Sequence record: OM632671.1
Direction: 5' to 3' (one strand)
Length of the DNA stretch: 64,000 nucleotides
Origin: Escherichia phage BEU50
Shown: positions 14,416 to 24,055 of the stretch, piece after piece
Position numbering within the stretch: the first letter of the stretch is position 1
How the letters are laid out: every line of letters starts with the position of its first letter
The notes under the pieces: model-generated
Database searches by the model: none
What the model was told of the DNA's origin: nothing
The model's input: only the letters and a program-made list of their open reading frames with translations
Program-made: the position numbers and the translations under genes

Positions 14416-14679
14416 ATGTTTAAAGTATATGGTTATGATAGCAACATCCATAAATGTGTGTATTGCGATAATGCAAAACGTCTTTTGACCGTGAAGAAAC
14501 AGCCGTTTGAATTTATCAACATTATGCCGGAAAAAGGTGTTTTTGATGATGAGAAAATCGCTGAGCTTCTGACTAAACTAGGTCGTGATACTCAAATCGG
14601 CTTAACAATGCCTCAGGTATTTGCTCCTGATGGAAGTCATATTGGTGGATTTGACCAATTGCGGGAATACTTTAAATGA
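14416..14679 (+). CDS. nrdC: glutaredoxin/thioredoxin (T4 NrdC type)
   Basis: 87 aa, CVYC redox motif; matches recalled T4 NrdC. Confidence 0.9.
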   Translation: MFKVYGYDSNIHKCVYCDNAKRLLTVKKQPFEFINIMPEKGVFDDEKIAELLTKLGRDTQIGLTMPQVFAPDGSHIGGFDQLREYFK

Positions 14680-15064: not shown

Positions 15065-15186
15065 ACCCTGGTGGGCGGCTAGATGGGAAACTGTAGAGCC
15101 AGAGCCGGAAGAACCGGTTTACACTGATGAAGAAACAGTATATAATGAACCAACGATAAATGACTTAATTGATATGGAGATGGGAC

Positions 15187-15672
15187 ATGATTACAGTAGA
15201 TAAGTGGTTTAGAATTAATCGTGTTGATACAGGGCTATGTAATTACTGGCCGGAACTTAGTGCAGGTACTGTCTTTAAAGTTCGTGAACTTGCAAAAGAA
15301 TGTGAAGATGATATAGAACCTGATACTGGAATTATTGAAATTGAACTTTCTGATGGAAAGATTATTAACATCTATGATAAGCCAATTACGTATTGGTGCT
15401 TGTGGAATACTGAATCCGTTGAAAATGGCGAAATTGAAGAAGTTGTAGAGAGAACTAGCCAAGATGCTCAGAAGCCTAAAGCCGCTTTTCAAGGTGAACG
15501 TATTTCATACGCATTAGCTAAATTAGCTGCACAAGAAAATAACGATGGTTATGAAGGAAATTTAATGCAAGCTGCCGCAGAGTACATTGAATGGCTTGAA
15601 ACTCAAATTTCTTTTTCTGACCAAATGATTCGGCAATATAAGCGATTGCATCAAATGTTTTACAATACTTGA
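15187..15672 (+). CDS. pin: hypothetical protein, possibly protease inhibitor Pin (161 aa)
   Basis: ORF-track frame trimmed to first ATG gives 161 aa, the T4 Pin length; position between nrdC and gene 49. Confidence 0.45.
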   Translation: MITVDKWFRINRVDTGLCNYWPELSAGTVFKVRELAKECEDDIEPDTGIIEIELSDGKIINIYDKPITYWCLWNTESVENGEIEEVVERTSQDAQKPKAAFQGERISYALAKLAAQENNDGYEGNLMQAAAEYIEWLETQISFSDQMIRQYKRLHQMFYNT

Positions 15673-15708
15673 AAAAACTCAAAATTCTTTTTCTGACAAG
15701 GCATTTTA

Positions 15709-15885
15709 ATGAAAACCGAATTGGTTTATACTGAAAAGTTAAATGGCGGTAAGGTTTGGAAACTTTTTATTAAAGGACATTCTACGGACCCTCATATGAC
15801 CACTTGCGTAGGAACCTATTCTCGTCCTACTAAAAAGATGATTCGACAGTATAAACGATTGCATCGAATGTTTTACAATACTTAA
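15709..15885 (+). CDS. small hypothetical protein (58 aa) sharing its C-terminus with upstream gene
   Basis: Not in ORF track; ends ...MIRQYKRLHRMFYNT, near-duplicate of the last 15 aa of the 15187..15672 product. Confidence 0.35.
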   Translation: MKTELVYTEKLNGGKVWKLFIKGHSTDPHMTTCVGTYSRPTKKMIRQYKRLHRMFYNT

Positions 15886-15925
15886 ATAATAAATACCCTT
15901 ATCTATTTAAGGTAAGGGTTTTATT

Positions 15926-16399
15926 ATGTTATTGACTGGCAAATTATACAAAGAAGAAAAACAAAAATTTTATAATGTACAAAACGGTAAATGCTTAATT
16001 TGCCAACGAGAACTAAATCCTGATGTTCAAGCTAATCACCTTGACCATGACCATGAATTAAATGGACCAAAAGCAGGAAAGGTACGTGGATTGCTTTGTA
16101 ATCTCTGCAATGCTGCAGAAGGTCAAATGAAGCACAAATTTAATCGTTCTGGCTTAAAGGGTCAAGGTGTTGATTATCTTGAATGGTTAGAAAATTTACT
16201 TACTTATTTAAAATCCGATTACACCCAAAATAATATTCACCCTAACTTTGTTGGAGATAAATCAAAGGAATTTTCTCGTTTAGGAAAAGAGGAAATGATG
16301 GCCGAGATGCTTCAAAGTGGATTTGAATATAATGAATCTGACACCAAAACACAATTAATAGCTTCATTTAAGAAGCAGCTTAGAAAGAGTTTAAAATGA
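15926..16399 (+). CDS. 49: endonuclease VII (Holliday junction resolvase)
   Basis: 157 aa; zinc-binding CLIC...C..C; matches T4 gp49 family. Confidence 0.88.
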   Translation: MLLTGKLYKEEKQKFYNVQNGKCLICQRELNPDVQANHLDHDHELNGPKAGKVRGLLCNLCNAAEGQMKHKFNRSGLKGQGVDYLEWLENLLTYLKSDYTQNNIHPNFVGDKSKEFSRLGKEEMMAEMLQSGFEYNESDTKTQLIASFKKQLRKSLK

Positions 16400-17217
16400 A
16401 TGTAGTATATAAACTATCATTTATTAATAGAATTAATGCTAAAACCCCACCATATTATTACATTGGAAGTAAAACCAATTGCACTTTTGATGGAACGAAT
16501 ATTATTGATAAAAATGGTAAATTTTATTATTCGTCTTCGTCATCTTCTGAATTTCAAAAAGCCTTATTGAAAGAAACGCCGAAAGTTGAAATATTATATT
16601 TTCAATTAGTCGGAGATGAACAAATAACTAGCATTGAAGCTGAATTTCAAAAGAATATAGAAAAAGATGTATGGAATAAAGAGTATTTTAATTTAGCATA
16701 TGCTGATGGCAAATTTACGACATATGGTATTTCTCCTTCTAAAGAAACTAGAGAAAAGCAATCAATAACCATGATTAAAAGAAATCGTAATAAAGGCAAA
16801 AATCATGGATTTTATGGAAAGCATCATACTAATTTAGCTAGAAAGAAAATATCAGAAGCTTCTAAAAAATACTGGAAAGAAAATCCACATCGTGGATTTT
16901 CGCATACAAAGGAAGCTAAAATTAAAATTGGAATTTCATCTTCTATCAGGCATAAAGGAAGTGGAAATCCGATGTATGGTGTAAAACCTTGGAAAACTCC
17001 GAGCGCAATTAAATCTGGTACTTGTATATTATGGTTAAAATACGCAGAAATTTTATATGATTATTTAAGTCCAGATTTTAAAAGTAAATCATCTATTTTT
17101 GCGGATTTAAACTTACCGAAATTTAGAATTGATAATTTCATCAAAAGGTTTAAAATGGGTTGGAACCCATATTTAGACGAAGAATTTCAAAAGGATAAAT
17201 TAGAATTATGTCTTTAG
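16396..17217 (+). CDS. GIY-YIG homing endonuclease (seg-like, free-standing)
   Basis: N-terminal VYKL...PYYYIGS GIY-YIG module; downstream basic helix repeats; start and stop overlap neighbouring genes. Confidence 0.75.
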   Translation: MNVVYKLSFINRINAKTPPYYYIGSKTNCTFDGTNIIDKNGKFYYSSSSSSEFQKALLKETPKVEILYFQLVGDEQITSIEAEFQKNIEKDVWNKEYFNLAYADGKFTTYGISPSKETREKQSITMIKRNRNKGKNHGFYGKHHTNLARKKISEASKKYWKENPHRGFSHTKEAKIKIGISSSIRHKGSGNPMYGVKPWKTPSAIKSGTCILWLKYAEILYDYLSPDFKSKSSIFADLNLPKFRIDNFIKRFKMGWNPYLDEEFQKDKLELCL

Positions 17218-18205
17218 AAAAAGATGTTTTAAATTTTATTTCAAATAAAGATAAAGAATTAAATACAGAAAACGCCAACAAAGATTCTCGCGTCTTTCCA
17301 ACAAAAAGAGATTTAATGGCCGGTATTGTTTCTAAACATATCGCTTGTCGTATTCTTCCAAGTCATATTGTAAATGCCCATAATGTTGGATTAATTCATT
17401 TTCATGATTTAGATTACAGTATATCATTGCCTTTTACTAATTGCTGTTTAGTAGATTTAAAAGGAATGCTTGAGAACGGGTTTAAGCTCGGTAATGCACA
17501 GATTGAAACTCCTAAATCAATCGGTGTTGCTACTGCAATTATGGCACAAATTACTGCACAGGTTGCTTCTCACCAATATGGCGGAACTACATTTGCTAAT
17601 GTCGATAAAGTACTTTCTCCTTATGTTAAACGCACCTATGCAAAACATATCGAAGACGCAGAAAAATGGCAAATCGCCGATGCGTTAAATTATGCTCAAT
17701 CTAAAACAGAAAAAGACGTATACGATGCATTCCAAGCTTATGAATATGAAGTAAATACTCTCTTTAGTTCAAACGGACAGACTCCTTTTGTAACAATTAC
17801 ATTTGGTACAGGAACTGACTGGACTGAACGAATGATTCAGAAAGCAATTCTGAAAAATCGTATTAAAGGTCTTGGTCGTGATGGGATAACTCCTATTTTC
17901 CCTAAGCTTGTTATGTTTGTTGAAGAAGGTGTTAATCTTTATAAAGACGATCCGAACTATGATATTAAGCAGCTTGCTCTAGAGTGTGCAAGCAAAAGAA
18001 TGTATCCTGATATTATTTCAGCTAAGAACAATAAAGCTATCACTGGTTCATCTGTTCCTGTTTCTCCAATGGGTTGCCGTAGTTTCTTGGGCGTATGGAA
18101 AGATTCGACTGGTAATGAAATTCTTGATGGACGTAATAATCTTGGCGTTGTAACACTGAATCTTCCTCGCATCGCGTTAGATTCTTATATTGGAACACAG
18201 TTCAA
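17208..18205 (+). pseudogene. nrdD: anaerobic ribonucleotide reductase NrdD, 5' portion only (truncated near codon 333)
   Basis: N-terminal two-thirds of class III RNR; frame then runs into reverse complement of gp37 start; no glycyl radical C-terminus. Confidence 0.8.
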
Positions 18206-18340
18206 TCCTGAGTCATCTTTTGTGAAAATTGTTTTATCTTTTAAGTTTATAGCCAATTCACCTTCGGCTAATACTGAAGCAGCAGGACGTTGACCTGCAG
18301 TTTTGCTTCTTTTAAATTGTATTTGTTTTAAAGTAGCCAT
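18206..18340 (-). pseudogene. 37: distal long tail fibre gp37, N-terminal 44-codon fragment
   Basis: Minus-strand [45 protein letters not shown] matches T4 gp37 N-terminus, then diverges and stops within 6 codons. Confidence 0.7.
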
Positions 18341-18348
18341 AAGTCCTC

Positions 18349-18999
18349 TTAATAATAGCCGAAATCTTGAACAGAATCCTTAATTACGATTTGGTCAAAT
18401 CGTGGAACGTGTGAAGGTTGAGATGCAGGATTCTGTGAAAAAAGGTTTGGCGCAGTTAAATTTCCTGTCATAGTGTCTCCAGAGCGTAATACCCTAGAGT
18501 TTGCATTTGCTGTAACAGTATTTATTGCTCCATCAACATAATCTTTACGAGTAGCATCTGATGCTGCGGAAGGAGTAGATGTAACAGTTACAGATGGAGC
18601 CGTTACAGCTTTGGTAAATGTTGTCAAACCTTCTGGCGTAATAGTAATTTGTCCAGTAGTGATTTCACTACCTGCTGGTCTAAAACTAATACCGCCAGAA
18701 GAGCCACCAACTACAAGAGTATTACCAGTGCCGCCACCAGAACGAATTCGGATGGGGGTTTCATTATTACTTAATTGAAGATAACTATTTACACCATAAT
18801 TAATAGTAACTGGGCCTGTGTAAGTACCACCAGTAGATTTAGAAACGAAATCATTATCAGCTGCCTGTGGTTTATTATATTCTGAATATATTTTAAATGA
18901 TTTGTAGAGTACATCGTCACCGGCTGAATTCAACGGAAAATTTCCTTGATGCCAAATGACAGATCCACCTACAGTTGAACCTCCTTTTAAATCAGCCAT
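18349..18999 (-). CDS. 36: long tail fibre distal connector gp36
   Basis: 216 aa; position between gp35 and gp37 fragment; T-even gp36 family. Confidence 0.85.
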
Positions 19000-19022
19000 A
19001 GTATGCCCATTTATTTTAATAT

Positions 19023-19030
19023 TATTTATA
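19023..19030 (-). promoter_or_regulatory. late promoter TATAAATA (gene 36)
   Basis: TATTTATA on plus strand, 24 nt upstream of gp36 ATG on minus strand. Confidence 0.5.
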
Positions 19031-19055
19031 AAGAAAAAAGGAGCCCGGCGGCTCC
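19031..19055 (-). terminator. rho-independent terminator candidate after gene 35
   Basis: GGAGCC-CGGC-GGCTCC hairpin followed on minus strand by TTTTTTCTT. Confidence 0.55.
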
Positions 19056-19061
19056 CTCAGT

Positions 19062-20177
19062 TTAAACTTCTCTAAATTCCTGTCCAAACACTTTACCAGT
19101 TTTAGACGATGCCTGTGTAGGAAGTACCATTATATCTGGAGGTGAAGCCGATTCACAGACATAATTAACGCGAATACCATTGACGCCAAATTCGGCAGGT
19201 TTTGAAATGCCGCCATTTCTTGATACTTCAGAAAAGCTTAAATTTCTCATACCGCCTTGACCCGCTTGGGCGGTTCTCTGTGTGTATATCGTAAATCCTA
19301 CTGCATTTTCAGGAACAACTACATAATCTTCTTTTAATTCCCAAGACCCAGCTTGCCCAGTAAACTCAGCTTGGGTCGAGGAAATATATCCATTTGATGC
19401 ATCATAAAAACGAATAGATATATTTGCAGTTCCAAGATCAAGTAAATCAGCATCAGCATATAGTTGTGCTTTAAGATAAAGAACATCACCAGGAATTAAA
19501 TTGTAGTCAGAAAGTTTACTTATAGCAGCTGAAGTTGGTAAACGCGCAATTTCATTATTAGTTCCACCAACCGCAGACATAAATTGCTCAACGCTTTCGT
19601 ATGTTCTTTTAGGAAATCCTGTAGCTCCGACGTCTTCTAAACTATCAAATACAACATCTAAAATAGTTTGATAATCATCTGTGCTTTTTCTATTACTTAG
19701 TTTAACATGCTCTAATGCAATAGCTCTTTTAGAAGAAGTATAAAAAGCAGCATATGACACGTCAAATCTTGACAATACTGAATCTGATGGAAAAACTGAA
19801 GTTCCTGCTCCCCTTAACCAAGATACCACTTCAGGAGGAAAATTAACCTTTCCGCTAGTTAATATAGCAACAAGTCTATTGTTTGACAAAGAATTCATGA
19901 AACTGACAAAAGTGGTAGATGTTGTATTGTTTGAAGCAGAAAAAGCATATGACTTACTATCAACTAATGCTCCCGTAGAAGGGTCAAAAACTCTTAAATG
20001 AAGACCTGCACTAAATGTTTGATTTCCAACGGGATTATCCTGAAATTTAACATATGGTCCCGCAGTAGAAAGCGGGCAAGAACCCGCTATGCTTATTTTA
20101 TATCTTACTGAATTGCTTTCCGATAAAAATGGCGTTTGGACATATCCTTGTCCAAACTCTGCCATAAATTTTTCCAT
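19062..20177 (-). CDS. 35: long tail fibre hinge connector gp35
   Basis: 371 aa; synteny between gp34 and gp36. Confidence 0.85.
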   Translation of the reverse strand: MEKFMAEFGQGYVQTPFLSESNSVRYKISIAGSCPLSTAGPYVKFQDNPVGNQTFSAGLHLRVFDPSTGALVDSKSYAFSASNNTTSTTFVSFMNSLSNNRLVAILTSGKVNFPPEVVSWLRGAGTSVFPSDSVLSRFDVSYAAFYTSSKRAIALEHVKLSNRKSTDDYQTILDVVFDSLEDVGATGFPKRTYESVEQFMSAVGGTNNEIARLPTSAAISKLSDYNLIPGDVLYLKAQLYADADLLDLGTANISIRFYDASNGYISSTQAEFTGQAGSWELKEDYVVVPENAVGFTIYTQRTAQAGQGGMRNLSFSEVSRNGGISKPAEFGVNGIRVNYVCESASPPDIMVLPTQASSKTGKVFGQEFREV

Positions 20178-20185
20178 AATACCTC

Positions 20186-23100
20186 TTATTCAACCCATTC
20201 AAATTTAACAGTTTTATTCACTGGGTCAGGAATAATGCGAACATTACCAATTCGTAAGAAATCACGAATAGTAAGATTACCTATTATTCCATTATCAGAT
20301 GGGATTGCTCCTATATCCGAAGGTTGAGGAGGATTACCTCCATCGAATACCTGAACAAAACTTGACCAAGAGTTTTTGGTTTTCTGCCATGTACGTGTCC
20401 AGCGAGTGGTACGTGCTTCTGGGGTCGTTGGATAAGTAATCCAATCTTGGTAAAGTGAATCAAGTGTGTTACCAAACTGAGTCAATGTACCAGGAGATTT
20501 AACTTCTTCACCGCGTTCTAAATATGGAAGTCCAGTCACTTCATTAGTTTTTTCAACCATTTTAAAATAACCCGGGAACTGGTTATAAGTGGCTGAATCA
20601 TTAATATCGATTGACCAGAATCCTACAGTATCAGATGTTGGCGCACGGGTATATAAATCAGATGTTTTAACACCTTGAGAACGAATTCTCGAGTTAACAG
20701 TTAAACCGCCTGAACTTATAGTAGCACCTTTTGCAATGATTAAGCTTTCACCAATCGTTACTTGGCCAGATGCATTATTAATAGATAAAGGACGTAATCC
20801 ATTAAATCCGCCAGTTTGATCACCCGATGCAGTAAGCATAAAATTCGTTACTGACCCATCATTGCGAACAATGAAACCATAATTTCCGTTAATAGCACGG
20901 AAAGCATTTGCGCTTCGAGAAATAATTTCACCAGTTGCAGTGACTGAATTACCAAATGTTGCTACACCATTTGCATTCAATGTTCCTGAAGCATTAACAT
21001 TTATCGGTGTTACTGTACCGTTGATATTAAATGTTATATTTCCAGCTTTATTACGCTGAGAATAAAAATGACTAGACGTTTCATCACTAACTTCAAATAC
21101 GGTAGAACGTGTTGTGTCTGATTCCCCACTAAATTGATTTCCCCACACTCTGACTGTCATCGTTTGAGCCGGGTTTGTTCCAGTTTGAGGTCCTTTCTCA
21201 AAAATCAATCGAGTTGCCGTTCCAGTATTAGAAATAGTTAATGTACTATTTGCTGAAACTGATCCACCGAATGTAGCAGTACTAGATGATACAAGAGGGG
21301 CACTCAGATTCGTTTGTTGGGTTAAGGTTAGTGAACCATTAACTGTTTGTGCAATGTCCCTACGAATGAACTGGAGCGAATCTAGACCATCTAATAAATT
21401 ACTATCTACAGCTTTTGCTTTTAATGGCAAATAATTTGCTAATACGCGATTTAATTCATATGGTGATACTGCATAACCATTTTTCTCATATGATTCTAAT
21501 GGTTGTGTTGAACCTACCGTATCATTACCAACGAATGTAATTGAACCAGATGAAGTTTTAACAAACCCTCTTATCAGAGTAGTTGCTGCCCAAGTTGGTT
21601 CACTCTGCACAATCCATTTTAAATTTTTTGGAGATACAGCAGTATTTGCTGATGTTCCAGTCACAGTTTCAGACTGAGTTGCAACTTTAATAACACCTTC
21701 CTGTGCTTCAGTAGATTTAGTACCTAAAAGCTTTTTAGGAGTTATTAAAACATTATCTAATGTTCCTGCAGCAGCTTCAACTTGTGTAGCTACACGAAGT
21801 GTACCACGCTGTGTCTCATTTGCTTCAAGAATATTAAGTGTATAATGGTCCCAGAGAGTTCCTGATTCAACTAATCCAGATAGAGCAACAACAGAAGTAC
21901 GATCAGTACTATTAAATCTAGTTTTAATTTTTAATGGTGTAGAGATGCGAGTATCGTCGACGCCTGCGTCGAATTCAACTTGCGTAGCAATTTCAGCTAT
22001 ACCACTTAAACTTTCAGTTGCTCTACGGTCATTTAAAGTTTTAGGAGTGACTGCACGAGTATAGTCAGTTCCTGTGTTAACTTCACTTTGCGTAGCAATT
22101 TCAATTAAACCAATTCTTCCATCAGTTGATGTCTTTTTATGTAACGTTTCTGGCGTTACAACCGCATTTGCCCATCCTTCTTGGCTTTGTCCAGCAATTA
22201 CTTCACTTTCAACTGCTAAAATTACTGCGCCTTGTTGCGTTGGAGTAGCTTTATACTGATCCAAAGCTTTAGGTGAAACAACTAAATTATTAGTGTTTTT
22301 ATTATAAACATTCGTACCATTTAATTCACGGCTAGAAGCTGGAGTAGCTCCTGCAGTAGATACATAAGTTACAATACCAGATAATGATTCAGAACCTTGG
22401 CGAGCTTGAAGCTTTTTAGGAGTGATGATTGTAGTATCATCAGTACCTGTATTAGTTTCCTGCTGCGTAGCAATTTCAGCGACACCTCTACGAGTTTCTG
22501 TAGCAGTTCTTTCATTCAGCTTTTTAGGAGTGATGATAAGGTCATCTGCAAAAGAGAATGTGGTGTTCTGATTCACTTGAGCAGTAGTTGCTATTCTTGC
22601 AATACCTCTGCGAGTTTCTGTAGCAGTACGATTAGCTAACGTTTCTGGAGTAATTGCTAATTCTTTTTGTGGAGAATTTTCTAAATCAGCATTTGCTTGA
22701 GCTTGCGTAGCTAAAGCAATTACGCCTAATCTTGCTCTAGTAGAAGCATTTAAAGAGTCTACTCTTTCTACAGTTGGAACGTTTTGCTGTACAACCCAGC
22801 ATTTTCCATCAGAATCTTCTATATAAGCAAGTTGTAAAACTGGAACATAATTAGTTTCACCGTTAAAAACTAATTCTTGAACTGTTACCCATTCAGCTTC
22901 AGGCGGATATTCTGAACGTTTTGGGAATTGCAGCAATTGAACTGAGGAAGCAATTTTATCTTCACCTGCAGCTTTGATTTTAACTGTTTGTCCTTTTCTC
23001 ATGTAATTCATGGAAATTTTAACAGTATCACCAACAGAAATATCAGTCGGAAGCTGAAGTTCAATTGTTTGGGTTGTTCCATTATTCGCGCCAAATACCA

Positions 23101-24055
23101 TGACTTCTTCATTTGGACGAATATTAGAATTAGTTGTTATAATGCGTAAACGTGCTTTACTATCCCCGTCAAACAATCTCCACAATTTCTCATTATCATC
23201 AAACATCAAGAAACCGTCAATCGATGTACGGCCTTCAATGGAATGAGTTCCAACTTCTTGCACTGACGTTGTTTCATCATATGTCGTAACAATTGTATGA
23301 TAAAGTGGATTTAATTTATCTAAATCAACGAAATTAATGATATCTCCATGATTGGCAAATCTTGGAAGCTTAACATTAATCGGCGCGGCAGAAGTAAATC
23401 TACGTACGATAAAATCATTAGATTGTGCTTGATATGCAGTCGATGGAGTAACAATCGCAGCTTCTCTGCTATAATCAGCAATATACATTTGCCACAAACG
23501 ATTATTAAAAATGAATACCATCTGTGACTTTGGATGAGTCATTAAAACTGAACGTACCTGTTCACCTCTAAAATTGACAATACTCTGATTTGAAGAATTT
23601 ATTTTAACCTGATTTATGCCAGGTTTTCCACCGATATCTTGAATTATTACGGTTTCTCCATCAAGCGGAGAAGGTGGTAAAGTAAACTCAATGTCATTGC
23701 CAACTGATGTATCTACTGAAATTGCTTCTCCGGATTTTAATTGATATGGTCCAGATGATACGGTTGTATATACAGCATCAGTACGTAATGCTTTCCAACG
23801 AATTCTATTAAAATTTCCAGCAGGTTTTGGAATATTATCCGTTGCTGCCCAAAAACGATTATTATAAATGATTACAAAATCTTTTAAATATCCACGAGTT
23901 GGATCATATTGCTGAACTGTGTTTTCTTGAATTAAGTAATCAACGTTAACACCGTCAGTTCCTACGGTACGATCAGCTAAAGCTACGTTGATTATTTTAT
24001 CGCCACCTGCGTCCAGACCATCTTCTGCTCTGAACTTTCTTTTAATCTCGGCCAT
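20186..24055 (-). CDS. 34: long tail fibre proximal subunit gp34
   Basis: 1289 aa; N-terminus MAEIKRKFRAEDGLDAGGDKIINVALADRTVGTDGVNVDYLIQ and C-terminus KTVKFEWVE match T4 gp34. Confidence 0.92.
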   Translation of the reverse strand: MAEIKRKFRAEDGLDAGGDKIINVALADRTVGTDGVNVDYLIQENTVQQYDPTRGYLKDFVIIYNNRFWAATDNIPKPAGNFNRIRWKALRTDAVYTTVSSGPYQLKSGEAISVDTSVGNDIEFTLPPSPLDGETVIIQDIGGKPGINQVKINSSNQSIVNFRGEQVRSVLMTHPKSQMVFIFNNRLWQMYIADYSREAAIVTPSTAYQAQSNDFIVRRFTSAAPINVKLPRFANHGDIINFVDLDKLNPLYHTIVTTYDETTSVQEVGTHSIEGRTSIDGFLMFDDNEKLWRLFDGDSKARLRIITTNSNIRPNEEVMVFGANNGTTQTIELQLPTDISVGDTVKISMNYMRKGQTVKIKAAGEDKIASSVQLLQFPKRSEYPPEAEWVTVQELVFNGETNYVPVLQLAYIEDSDGKCWVVQQNVPTVERVDSLNASTRARLGVIALATQAQANADLENSPQKELAITPETLANRTATETRRGIARIATTAQVNQNTTFSFADDLIITPKKLNERTATETRRGVAEIATQQETNTGTDDTTIITPKKLQARQGSESLSGIVTYVSTAGATPASSRELNGTNVYNKNTNNLVVSPKALDQYKATPTQQGAVILAVESEVIAGQSQEGWANAVVTPETLHKKTSTDGRIGLIEIATQSEVNTGTDYTRAVTPKTLNDRRATESLSGIAEIATQVEFDAGVDDTRISTPLKIKTRFNSTDRTSVVALSGLVESGTLWDHYTLNILEANETQRGTLRVATQVEAAAGTLDNVLITPKKLLGTKSTEAQEGVIKVATQSETVTGTSANTAVSPKNLKWIVQSEPTWAATTLIRGFVKTSSGSITFVGNDTVGSTQPLESYEKNGYAVSPYELNRVLANYLPLKAKAVDSNLLDGLDSLQFIRRDIAQTVNGSLTLTQQTNLSAPLVSSSTATFGGSVSANSTLTISNTGTATRLIFEKGPQTGTNPAQTMTVRVWGNQFSGESDTTRSTVFEVSDETSSHFYSQRNKAGNITFNINGTVTPINVNASGTLNANGVATFGNSVTATGEIISRSANAFRAINGNYGFIVRNDGSVTNFMLTASGDQTGGFNGLRPLSINNASGQVTIGESLIIAKGATISSGGLTVNSRIRSQGVKTSDLYTRAPTSDTVGFWSIDINDSATYNQFPGYFKMVEKTNEVTGLPYLERGEEVKSPGTLTQFGNTLDSLYQDWITYPTTPEARTTRWTRTWQKTKNSWSSFVQVFDGGNPPQPSDIGAIPSDNGIIGNLTIRDFLRIGNVRIIPDPVNKTVKFEWVE

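Follow-up and report, generated by a model that had tools for sequence, protein, structure and literature searches.

The Pin protein of phage T4 (PinA) binds and inhibits the host Lon protease, according to papers cited in PMC8835725. Partial paralogous duplications beside conserved genes have been reported in T4-like phages, involving alt, alt.-1 and alt.-2 as well as motB and RB69ORF010c (Nolan et al. 2006, PMC1524935). The locus described here resembles them in that a short ORF adjoins, and is similar to, a conserved gene in a region of high mosaicism. It differs in that pin itself seems to have taken a piece from the small gene, and in that the tandem copy would consist of two alleles that were joined. 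It also shares with target-site duplications the presence of direct repeats together with a segment found in some genomes and absent from others. Unlike in a target-site duplication, the repeats are the halves of a 74-nt sequence that has its full copy upstream, and the "insert" appears to be older than the "empty site".

The window, by which we mean the whole 64,000 nt stretch from Escherichia phage BEU50 (record OM632671.1), is DNA of a T4-like phage (Tequatrovirus). Phage RB32 has the same architecture and the same duplication junction. The small ORF is annotated in RB32 as ORF078c, with the GenBank note "similar to RB69ORF087c, JS98orf087c-like, pin", and the mini-ORF of the window is a full-length member of the same family (DUF7279), with no substantive difference. 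T4 has nothing between pin and the hairpin upstream of gene 49, whereas the window has a pin relic and a DUF7279 gene there. Our literature search found no paper discussing DUF7279 or RB32 ORF078c, and nothing on the C-terminus of PinA or the origin of the pin tail. The features of the region are listed in Table 1. We refer to the last 26 nt of pin before its tail as A', to the 48 nt that comprise the tail codons and the stop codon as C, and to the 137 nt holding the end of the split pin and DUF7279 codons 1-43 as segment I.

Table 1. Features of the window from nrdC to the tail-fibre genes
Feature	Coordinates	Strand	Basis or remarks
nrdC	14416-14679	+	Followed by three small ORFs including 49.1, then pin
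Sigma-70-type promoter (predicted)	15118-15146	+	Near-consensus TTTACA-17-TATAAT, 11/12; within 49.1, with the pin start some 40 nt downstream
pin (PinA, host Lon protease inhibitor), fused form, 161 aa	15187-15672	+	PF10465, PHROG 2167
A' copy 1	15599-15624	+	pin codons ..TQISFSDQ: 23-nt repeat and junction codon
C copy 1	15625-15672	+	pin tail MIRQYKRLHQMFYNT and stop codon
Duplication junction	15671-15677	+	CTTGAAAAAACTC, in an A-run; end of the fused pin joined to codon ~E138 of a split-type pin
Split-type pin 3' relic, including A' copy 2 (15675-15697)	15675-15709	+	Alignment to the pin ends of SP1, P922, IME08 and VR7
Segment I, without counterpart in T4-type genomes	15701-15837	+	Final 8 nt of the split pin, then DUF7279 codons 1-43
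DUF7279 gene, conserved, 58 aa (= RB32 ORF078c)	15709-15885	+	Pfam and PHROG profiles (DUF7279, PHROG 3272)
C copy 2, native DUF7279 tail	15838-15885	+	MIRQYKRLHRMFYNT and stop codon; repeat match extends to 15889
Hairpin with T-run, terminator-like	15895-15919	+	-18.1 kcal/mol, z -4.6; immediately upstream of the gene 49 start
Gene 49 (endonuclease VII), 157 aa, downstream anchor	15926-16399	+	Annotation in matching records
Free-standing homing-endonuclease-like ORF, 273 aa	16396-17217	+	PHROG 7504 (E 1.4e-33), NUMOD3 motif, GIY-YIG-like N-terminus
nrdD ORF	17208-18293	+	Stops at 361 aa
Tail-fibre genes	18349-24055	-	5' end of gene 37, then 36, 35 and 34 (1289 aa)

The 74 nt at the end of pin recurred once downstream, in two pieces. 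The repeat finder placed both pieces in direct orientation, one within A' (15599-15621 versus 15675-15697, 22/23 identical) and the other covering C (15625-15676 versus 15838-15889, 46/52 identical). They are separated by 140 nt as detected, or by 137 nt when the junction codon is assigned to the repeat. The earlier note had described a near-identical recurrence of the last ~75 nt, split around a segment of 140 nt, and this much was borne out. Its "twice more" should read once, in two pieces, and what it called an insert is the start region and the 43 N-terminal codons of a conserved gene. The repeats are significant at the nucleotide level, the point on which that reading had been staked: the best ungapped diagonal score in 15400-16000 was 34, about 20 sd above 100 dinucleotide shuffles of the same interval (mean 9.9, sd 1.2, maximum 15). 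No pair of inverted repeats was returned by the repeat finder at the locus, the 137-nt segment had no terminal inverted repeats, and the ORF list held no mobility gene within 15673-15889.

The small ORF itself is where the earlier note had placed it, although its C-terminus is not quite "the same 15 amino acids" as that of Pin. Fourteen of the 15 residues are identical, the difference being Q158 in Pin versus R53 in the ORF. The 15 shared sense codons show four differences, three of which are synonymous, and the stop codons (TGA and TAA) also differ. Between the two genes, the 35-nt relic translates as (E)KTQNSFSDKAF followed by a stop, in the +1 frame relative to pin. Within the relic, the AAGG at 15698-15701 resembles a Shine-Dalgarno sequence and is spaced 7 nt from the downstream start codon (ATG) of DUF7279; this ATG is overlapped by the TAA stop of the relic (TAATG). 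On its sequence, the relic is non-coding but still carries the predicted ribosome-binding site of DUF7279.

The family assignments were observed directly. The upstream gene, described earlier as pin-like, is pin: residues 4-141 match PF10465 (Inhibitor_I24) with E 1.7e-47 and 161.2 bits, above the cut-off of 27, and residues 1-146 match PHROG 2167 with E 1.3e-65. It is 95% identical to T4 Pin, and the 15-aa tail and the deletion junction are present in both. The known activity is that of T4 PinA, and Lon inhibition by the Pin of the window is predicted from this identity. The small ORF matches PF23945 over residues 7-56 and all profile positions (1-53/53), with 62.7 bits against a cut-off of 24.5 and E 3e-17, and PHROG 3272 over residues 1-58 with E 3.4e-34. 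At E<=10, DUF7279 was the only Pfam family to match. The 43 N-terminal residues unique to the ORF are encoded in 322 phage records from five Tevenvirinae genera, and RB33, like many other phages, encodes them at this position with 100% identity. Between genera, dN/dS in these 43 codons was ~0.15-0.3, which indicates that the small gene is real and under purifying selection.

Across the Tevenvirinae we directly observed three architectures, with counts that are approximate since they depend on BLAST coverage thresholds. The split form (A'-I-C-hairpin-49) was found in 80-100 Tequatrovirus records and about 130 in other genera. The T4-type or fused form (A'-C-hairpin-49) accounted for about 259 records, this being the 364 with the fused pin junction minus the 105 of the window or RB32 type (A'-C-[junction]-A'-I-C-hairpin-49). 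In Tequatrovirus SP1 and P922, pin is 148 aa long, ends ..SFSDR(T/A)F before its stop, and runs into DUF7279 through a TAATG overlap. Mosigvirus SF has a pin of 136 aa without the tail, followed by DUF7279. In Dhakavirus IME08 and MN04 a short pin of 57-72 aa, ending ..FSDEAF or ..FADKAF and a stop, overlaps DUF7279; Gaprivervirus VR7 has a short pin of the same kind and an extra ORF of 90 aa before DUF7279. In Gelderlandvirus S16, a tailed DUF7279 (LIRRYKRINRLFNF) immediately follows 49.1, and the stretch that was examined contained no match to pin. DUF7279 thus occurs in S16 as well as upstream of gene 49 in Tequatro-, Mosig-, Dhaka- and Gaprivervirus. In T4, pin is followed by the hairpin and then by gene 49, while the window, SHFML-26, RB32 and PM107 have both a tailed pin and DUF7279. 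The hairpin was nearly invariant in T4, SP1, P922, VR7, IME08 and MN04, and on the right it is the fixed limit of the variable interval. In T4 this hairpin is implicated in translational control of gene 49 and lies near a late promoter. The predicted promoter within 49.1 is probably an early promoter serving pin and the small gene.

Several lines of evidence indicate to which gene the tail originally belonged. The Pin profiles stop at about residues 141-146, the DUF7279 profile spans the tail, and the DUF7279 of S16 is tailed in the absence of a pin match. The tail therefore appears native to DUF7279 and derived on T4-type Pin. Pin residues 146-161 match positions 43-58 of the DUF7279 profile PHROG 3272 (E 9e-4). 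The tail is retained by DUF7279 in all five genera, S16 included, and seven homologues from four genera have M44, I45, R46, Q47, K49, R50, H52, R53, F55 and Y56 as invariant tail residues. By contrast, all tail-bearing sequences in the Pin alignment were from Tequatrovirus, as were all phages with the fused junction whose taxonomy records we fetched. The form expected of a fusion was found: Pin residues 1-146 correspond to split pin, residues 147-161 correspond to DUF7279 residues 44-58, and a single indel of 137 nt separates the two states. This implies that the T4 PinA that has been studied biochemically is a chimera, its last 15 residues coming from the neighbouring gene.

The allele identities, which were also read directly and which rest on 74-211 nt, set the two copies in the window apart. 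Copy 1 (A' and C, 74 nt) was 72/74 identical to T4 and to P922, and 66/74 to SP1. Taken separately, its A' matched T4 and P922 at 25/26 positions and SP1 at 22/26, and its C matched T4 and the end of the P922 mini-ORF at 47/48 and SP1 at 44/48. Copy 2 (A', I and C) was closer to SP1 (206/211) than to P922 (193/211). Its A' was 25/26 and its C 47/48 identical to SP1, and segment I was 134/137 identical to SP1 and 127/137 to P922. At eight diagnostic positions copy 1 was P922-like and copy 2 SP1-like. T4 and P922 were themselves identical at 26/26 positions in A' and 46/48 in C. Upstream of the repeats, the RB32-type phages have mosaic haplotypes in the pin body, T4-like in the window and SHFML-26 and SP1-like in RB32, and later homologous exchange would therefore have blurred the parental signal there. 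SNPs upstream of the repeats were dropped as evidence of parentage on account of this mosaic signal, and the allele test within the repeats was used instead.

The common junction is a matter of direct observation too. The duplication junction of the window was present at 96-100% identity in 105 phage records, including RB32 and RB33, as counted by megablast with a 51-nt query across the junction, of which neither half could seed a match alone. A 90-nt query in sensitive mode was abandoned because it joined separate pieces, so that split-type genomes also scored as covered. With the same junction in all 105 carriers, a single origin followed by spread is implied. The repeat is head-to-tail with one novel junction common to its carriers, as in a tandem segmental duplication. 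CTTGAAA is present at both parental join sites, but three A residues are additional in the join, which is not a clean microhomology product. Neither a split parent with CTTGAAAAAACTC nor an exact microhomology junction turned up in IMG/VR, where the scans gave only unrelated chance matches.

We think it likely that the T4-type locus arose from a P922-like split allele through the loss of 137 nt, and that the window carries a fused allele joined illegitimately to an SP1-like split allele. In the ancestral split form, a tail-less pin ending ...SFSD(R/K/E)xF would have been followed by a separate 58-aa DUF7279 gene with the C-terminal helix ...MIRQYKRLHRMFYNT, the two often overlapping via TAATG or TGATG. 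A deletion of 137 nt in a P922-like allele would then have removed the pin stop and DUF7279 codons 1-43. A loss of 137 nt shifts the frame by one base, as needed to bring the DUF7279 tail into the pin frame. The frame would thereby have been restored, with pin reading through the last 15 DUF7279 codons to the DUF7279 stop. That the change was a deletion and not an insertion, leading from split to fused, and that the events came in this order, we infer by parsimony from the distribution of the architectures and from family membership. The window or RB32 type would subsequently have arisen when a fused genome and an SP1-like split genome became joined in a single illegitimate (non-homologous) event. 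The join would lie in an A-run just past the stop of the fused pin, with entry 35 nt before the end of the pin of the split genome. In the product, the fused pin would be complete and DUF7279 intact, with a relic of 35 nt left between them from the other pin allele. The "repeats" would accordingly be A' and C, the two halves of the fused pin end, whose counterparts flank the DUF7279 body.

The earlier note had read the locus as a module inserted into a duplicated target. On that reading the tailed pin is ancestral, its end of ~75 nt was tandemly duplicated, and a module of ~140 nt with a stop, a start and 43 codons entered the second copy. T4, in which the repeat halves are contiguous, would then represent the empty site, and the halves of copy 2 do abut the 137-nt segment exactly. 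This "empty" T4 state is, however, phylogenetically restricted, and the split form occurs without the duplication in four genera. The supposed module is a gene body conserved in five genera with dN/dS of 0.15-0.3, the tail belongs to the DUF7279 profile and not to that of Pin, and S16 has a tailed DUF7279 without a pin match in the stretch examined. A mobile-element insertion is contradicted by the lack of inverted repeats and of a mobility gene on the segment, and the split halves are not flanking twins. The copies match two different alleles, which would not be expected of diverged twins. We consider ancestral tailing with later insertion very improbable. The suggestion of a recombination footprint held up, as comparison with other T-even phages accounts for the arrangement. 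The inserted module did not, given a conserved gene, two alleles and the lack of target-site-duplication geometry.

An in-situ route also deserves consideration, in which a split allele duplicated [A'-I-C] in tandem, copy 1 lost I, and the T4 type arose later through homologous deletion between the C copies. It needs two events, as many as the favoured deletion followed by a join of two alleles. Recombination between the C copies (a 213-nt deletion) could in principle give the T4 type, and recombination between the A' copies (76 nt) the split type. One deletion junction and the R53Q change are common to all fused pins, in line with this route. Against it, copies made in situ should start out identical, whereas the eight diagnostic positions divide into P922-like and SP1-like, and the route would have to include a later gene conversion in copy 1 as an extra step. 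A' with the junction codon in T4 is also 26/26 identical to P922, whose middle segment differs from that of the window (127/137). The match of copies 1 and 2 to different alleles thus favours the unequal illegitimate join, and we regard duplication in situ as unlikely. That the similarity arose by chance, or through an error in sequencing or assembling the contig, can practically be dismissed. Although the contig has another junction, at about 18207, that is absent from every reference phage, the repeat score lies far outside the shuffled range, and the identical arrangement and junction recur in 105 independently sequenced phages, RB32 and RB33 among them.

All fused pins have the same deletion junction and the same R53Q change. 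Their tails have drifted at residues invariant in DUF7279 (M44K, R46Q, H52N and R53Q), and among the fused Pins sampled the tail codons showed four non-synonymous changes to one synonymous, which suggests relaxed constraint. An argument for selection on the tail within Pin, from the mostly synonymous differences between the C copies, was rejected because these differences already exist between the P922-like and SP1-like DUF7279 alleles. The tail of T4 PinA may thus be a passenger and not part of the Lon-inhibitory unit. Most natural Pins lack the 15-residue C-terminal helix; it is missing from both the split-type and the short Pins. Given the drift at invariant residues, structure-function work on Lon inhibition should not assume that the tail belongs to the inhibitor. 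A PDB search found no solved relative of Pin, and a single-sequence AlphaFold2 model of Pin was unusable (mean pLDDT 47).

For DUF7279, the best AlphaFold2 model, built on an alignment of ten sequences, had a mean pLDDT of 81.8, against 53.6-67.0 for the other four. The predicted fold is beta-beta-beta-alpha, with strands at residues 2-9, 15-22 and 31-37 and a helix at 42-56. The 15-aa tail is thus the only helix of the predicted fold. An exhaustive profile search for DUF7279 returned just nine representatives, and a PDB sequence search returned none. The only solid structural match in BFVD was the 54-aa homologue of Salmonella phage S16. Foldseek against the PDB gave no match at E<=0.001 (best E 0.27). 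The four best matches were all Dicer helicase-dsRNA complexes, and lower-ranked ones included dsRNA-binding domains (DCL4 dsRBD2, the DHX9 dsRBD and TARBP2); all were weak (E 0.27-2.3, TM about 0.3-0.4). The protein is also very basic, and its helix bears a TKK motif at the N-terminal end. For nucleic-acid binding by DUF7279 this is a lead, not evidence.

It is conceivable, though we think it quite unlikely, that DUF7279 is a partner of Pin or a parallel effector, a small basic beta3-alpha protein acting on Lon or on nucleic acid. In that event, the captured helix would bring part of the DUF7279 function into T4 PinA, so that T4-type phages would have compacted a two-protein system into one while RB32-type phages run both. 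Biochemical results on T4 PinA would then apply to a chimera, and in most genera the tail-less Pin would depend on DUF7279 to work. The gene is shortened or frameshifted in some genomes and metagenomes, with proteins of 41 aa and 29 aa, as well as in phage MLP2. Such copies indicate that some lineages can dispense with DUF7279, in line with the loss of the gene from T4-type phages.

The feature as a whole is an ordinary scar of recombination between alleles. About 100 public genomes already have it, in part with annotation, and it represents no new kind of element or mechanism. What is modestly new is that the canonical C-terminus of T4 PinA would have been captured from the neighbouring DUF7279 gene. 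For annotation, the ORF of 58 aa that separates pin from gene 49 is best treated as a genuine conserved gene and not as a duplication artefact, and the 35 nt before it as a pin relic. Phages of the RB32 type encode a tailed Pin as well as DUF7279, and the locus offers a textbook example of T-even mosaicism creating and resolving gene fusions.

Further downstream, the homing-endonuclease-like ORF lies between gene 49 and nrdD and overlaps both by a few nt. It was absent from this site in SHFML-26, RB32, SP1 and P922. A link between this ORF and the duplication was considered and rejected, as RB32, SHFML-26 and PM107 have the duplication without the ORF. The nrdD ORF ends early and meets the reverse-strand tail-fibre genes (Table 1). 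None of the 866 phage records matching 17950-18650 spans the junction at ~18207, and the tail-fibre part matches at 99.8% from nt 258 of the query onward. In T4 the nrdD and tail-fibre loci are about 57 kb apart. On these grounds the contig appears to be either chimeric or wrongly assembled at ~18207, or else to have undergone a very large deletion. At the Rfam gathering thresholds the whole window, truncated nrdD included, had no matches, and no group I intron, tRNA or small-RNA family was detected.

The extra 90-aa ORF of VR7 (positions 1233-1505 of the retrieved stretch), between the short pin and DUF7279, belongs to PHROG 17711. In view of this ORF, genes appear to have been gained and lost repeatedly at the boundary of pin and DUF7279. 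In IME08, a segment of ~110 nt is additional between DUF7279 and the gene 49 hairpin, and is occupied by an unannotated ORF of 34 aa (1687-1791 of the retrieved stretch) with a strongly hydrophobic core, MGSDMDALITVFWVGVVLFGLLLVLSCTAKLLGY. Its product may be a small membrane protein.
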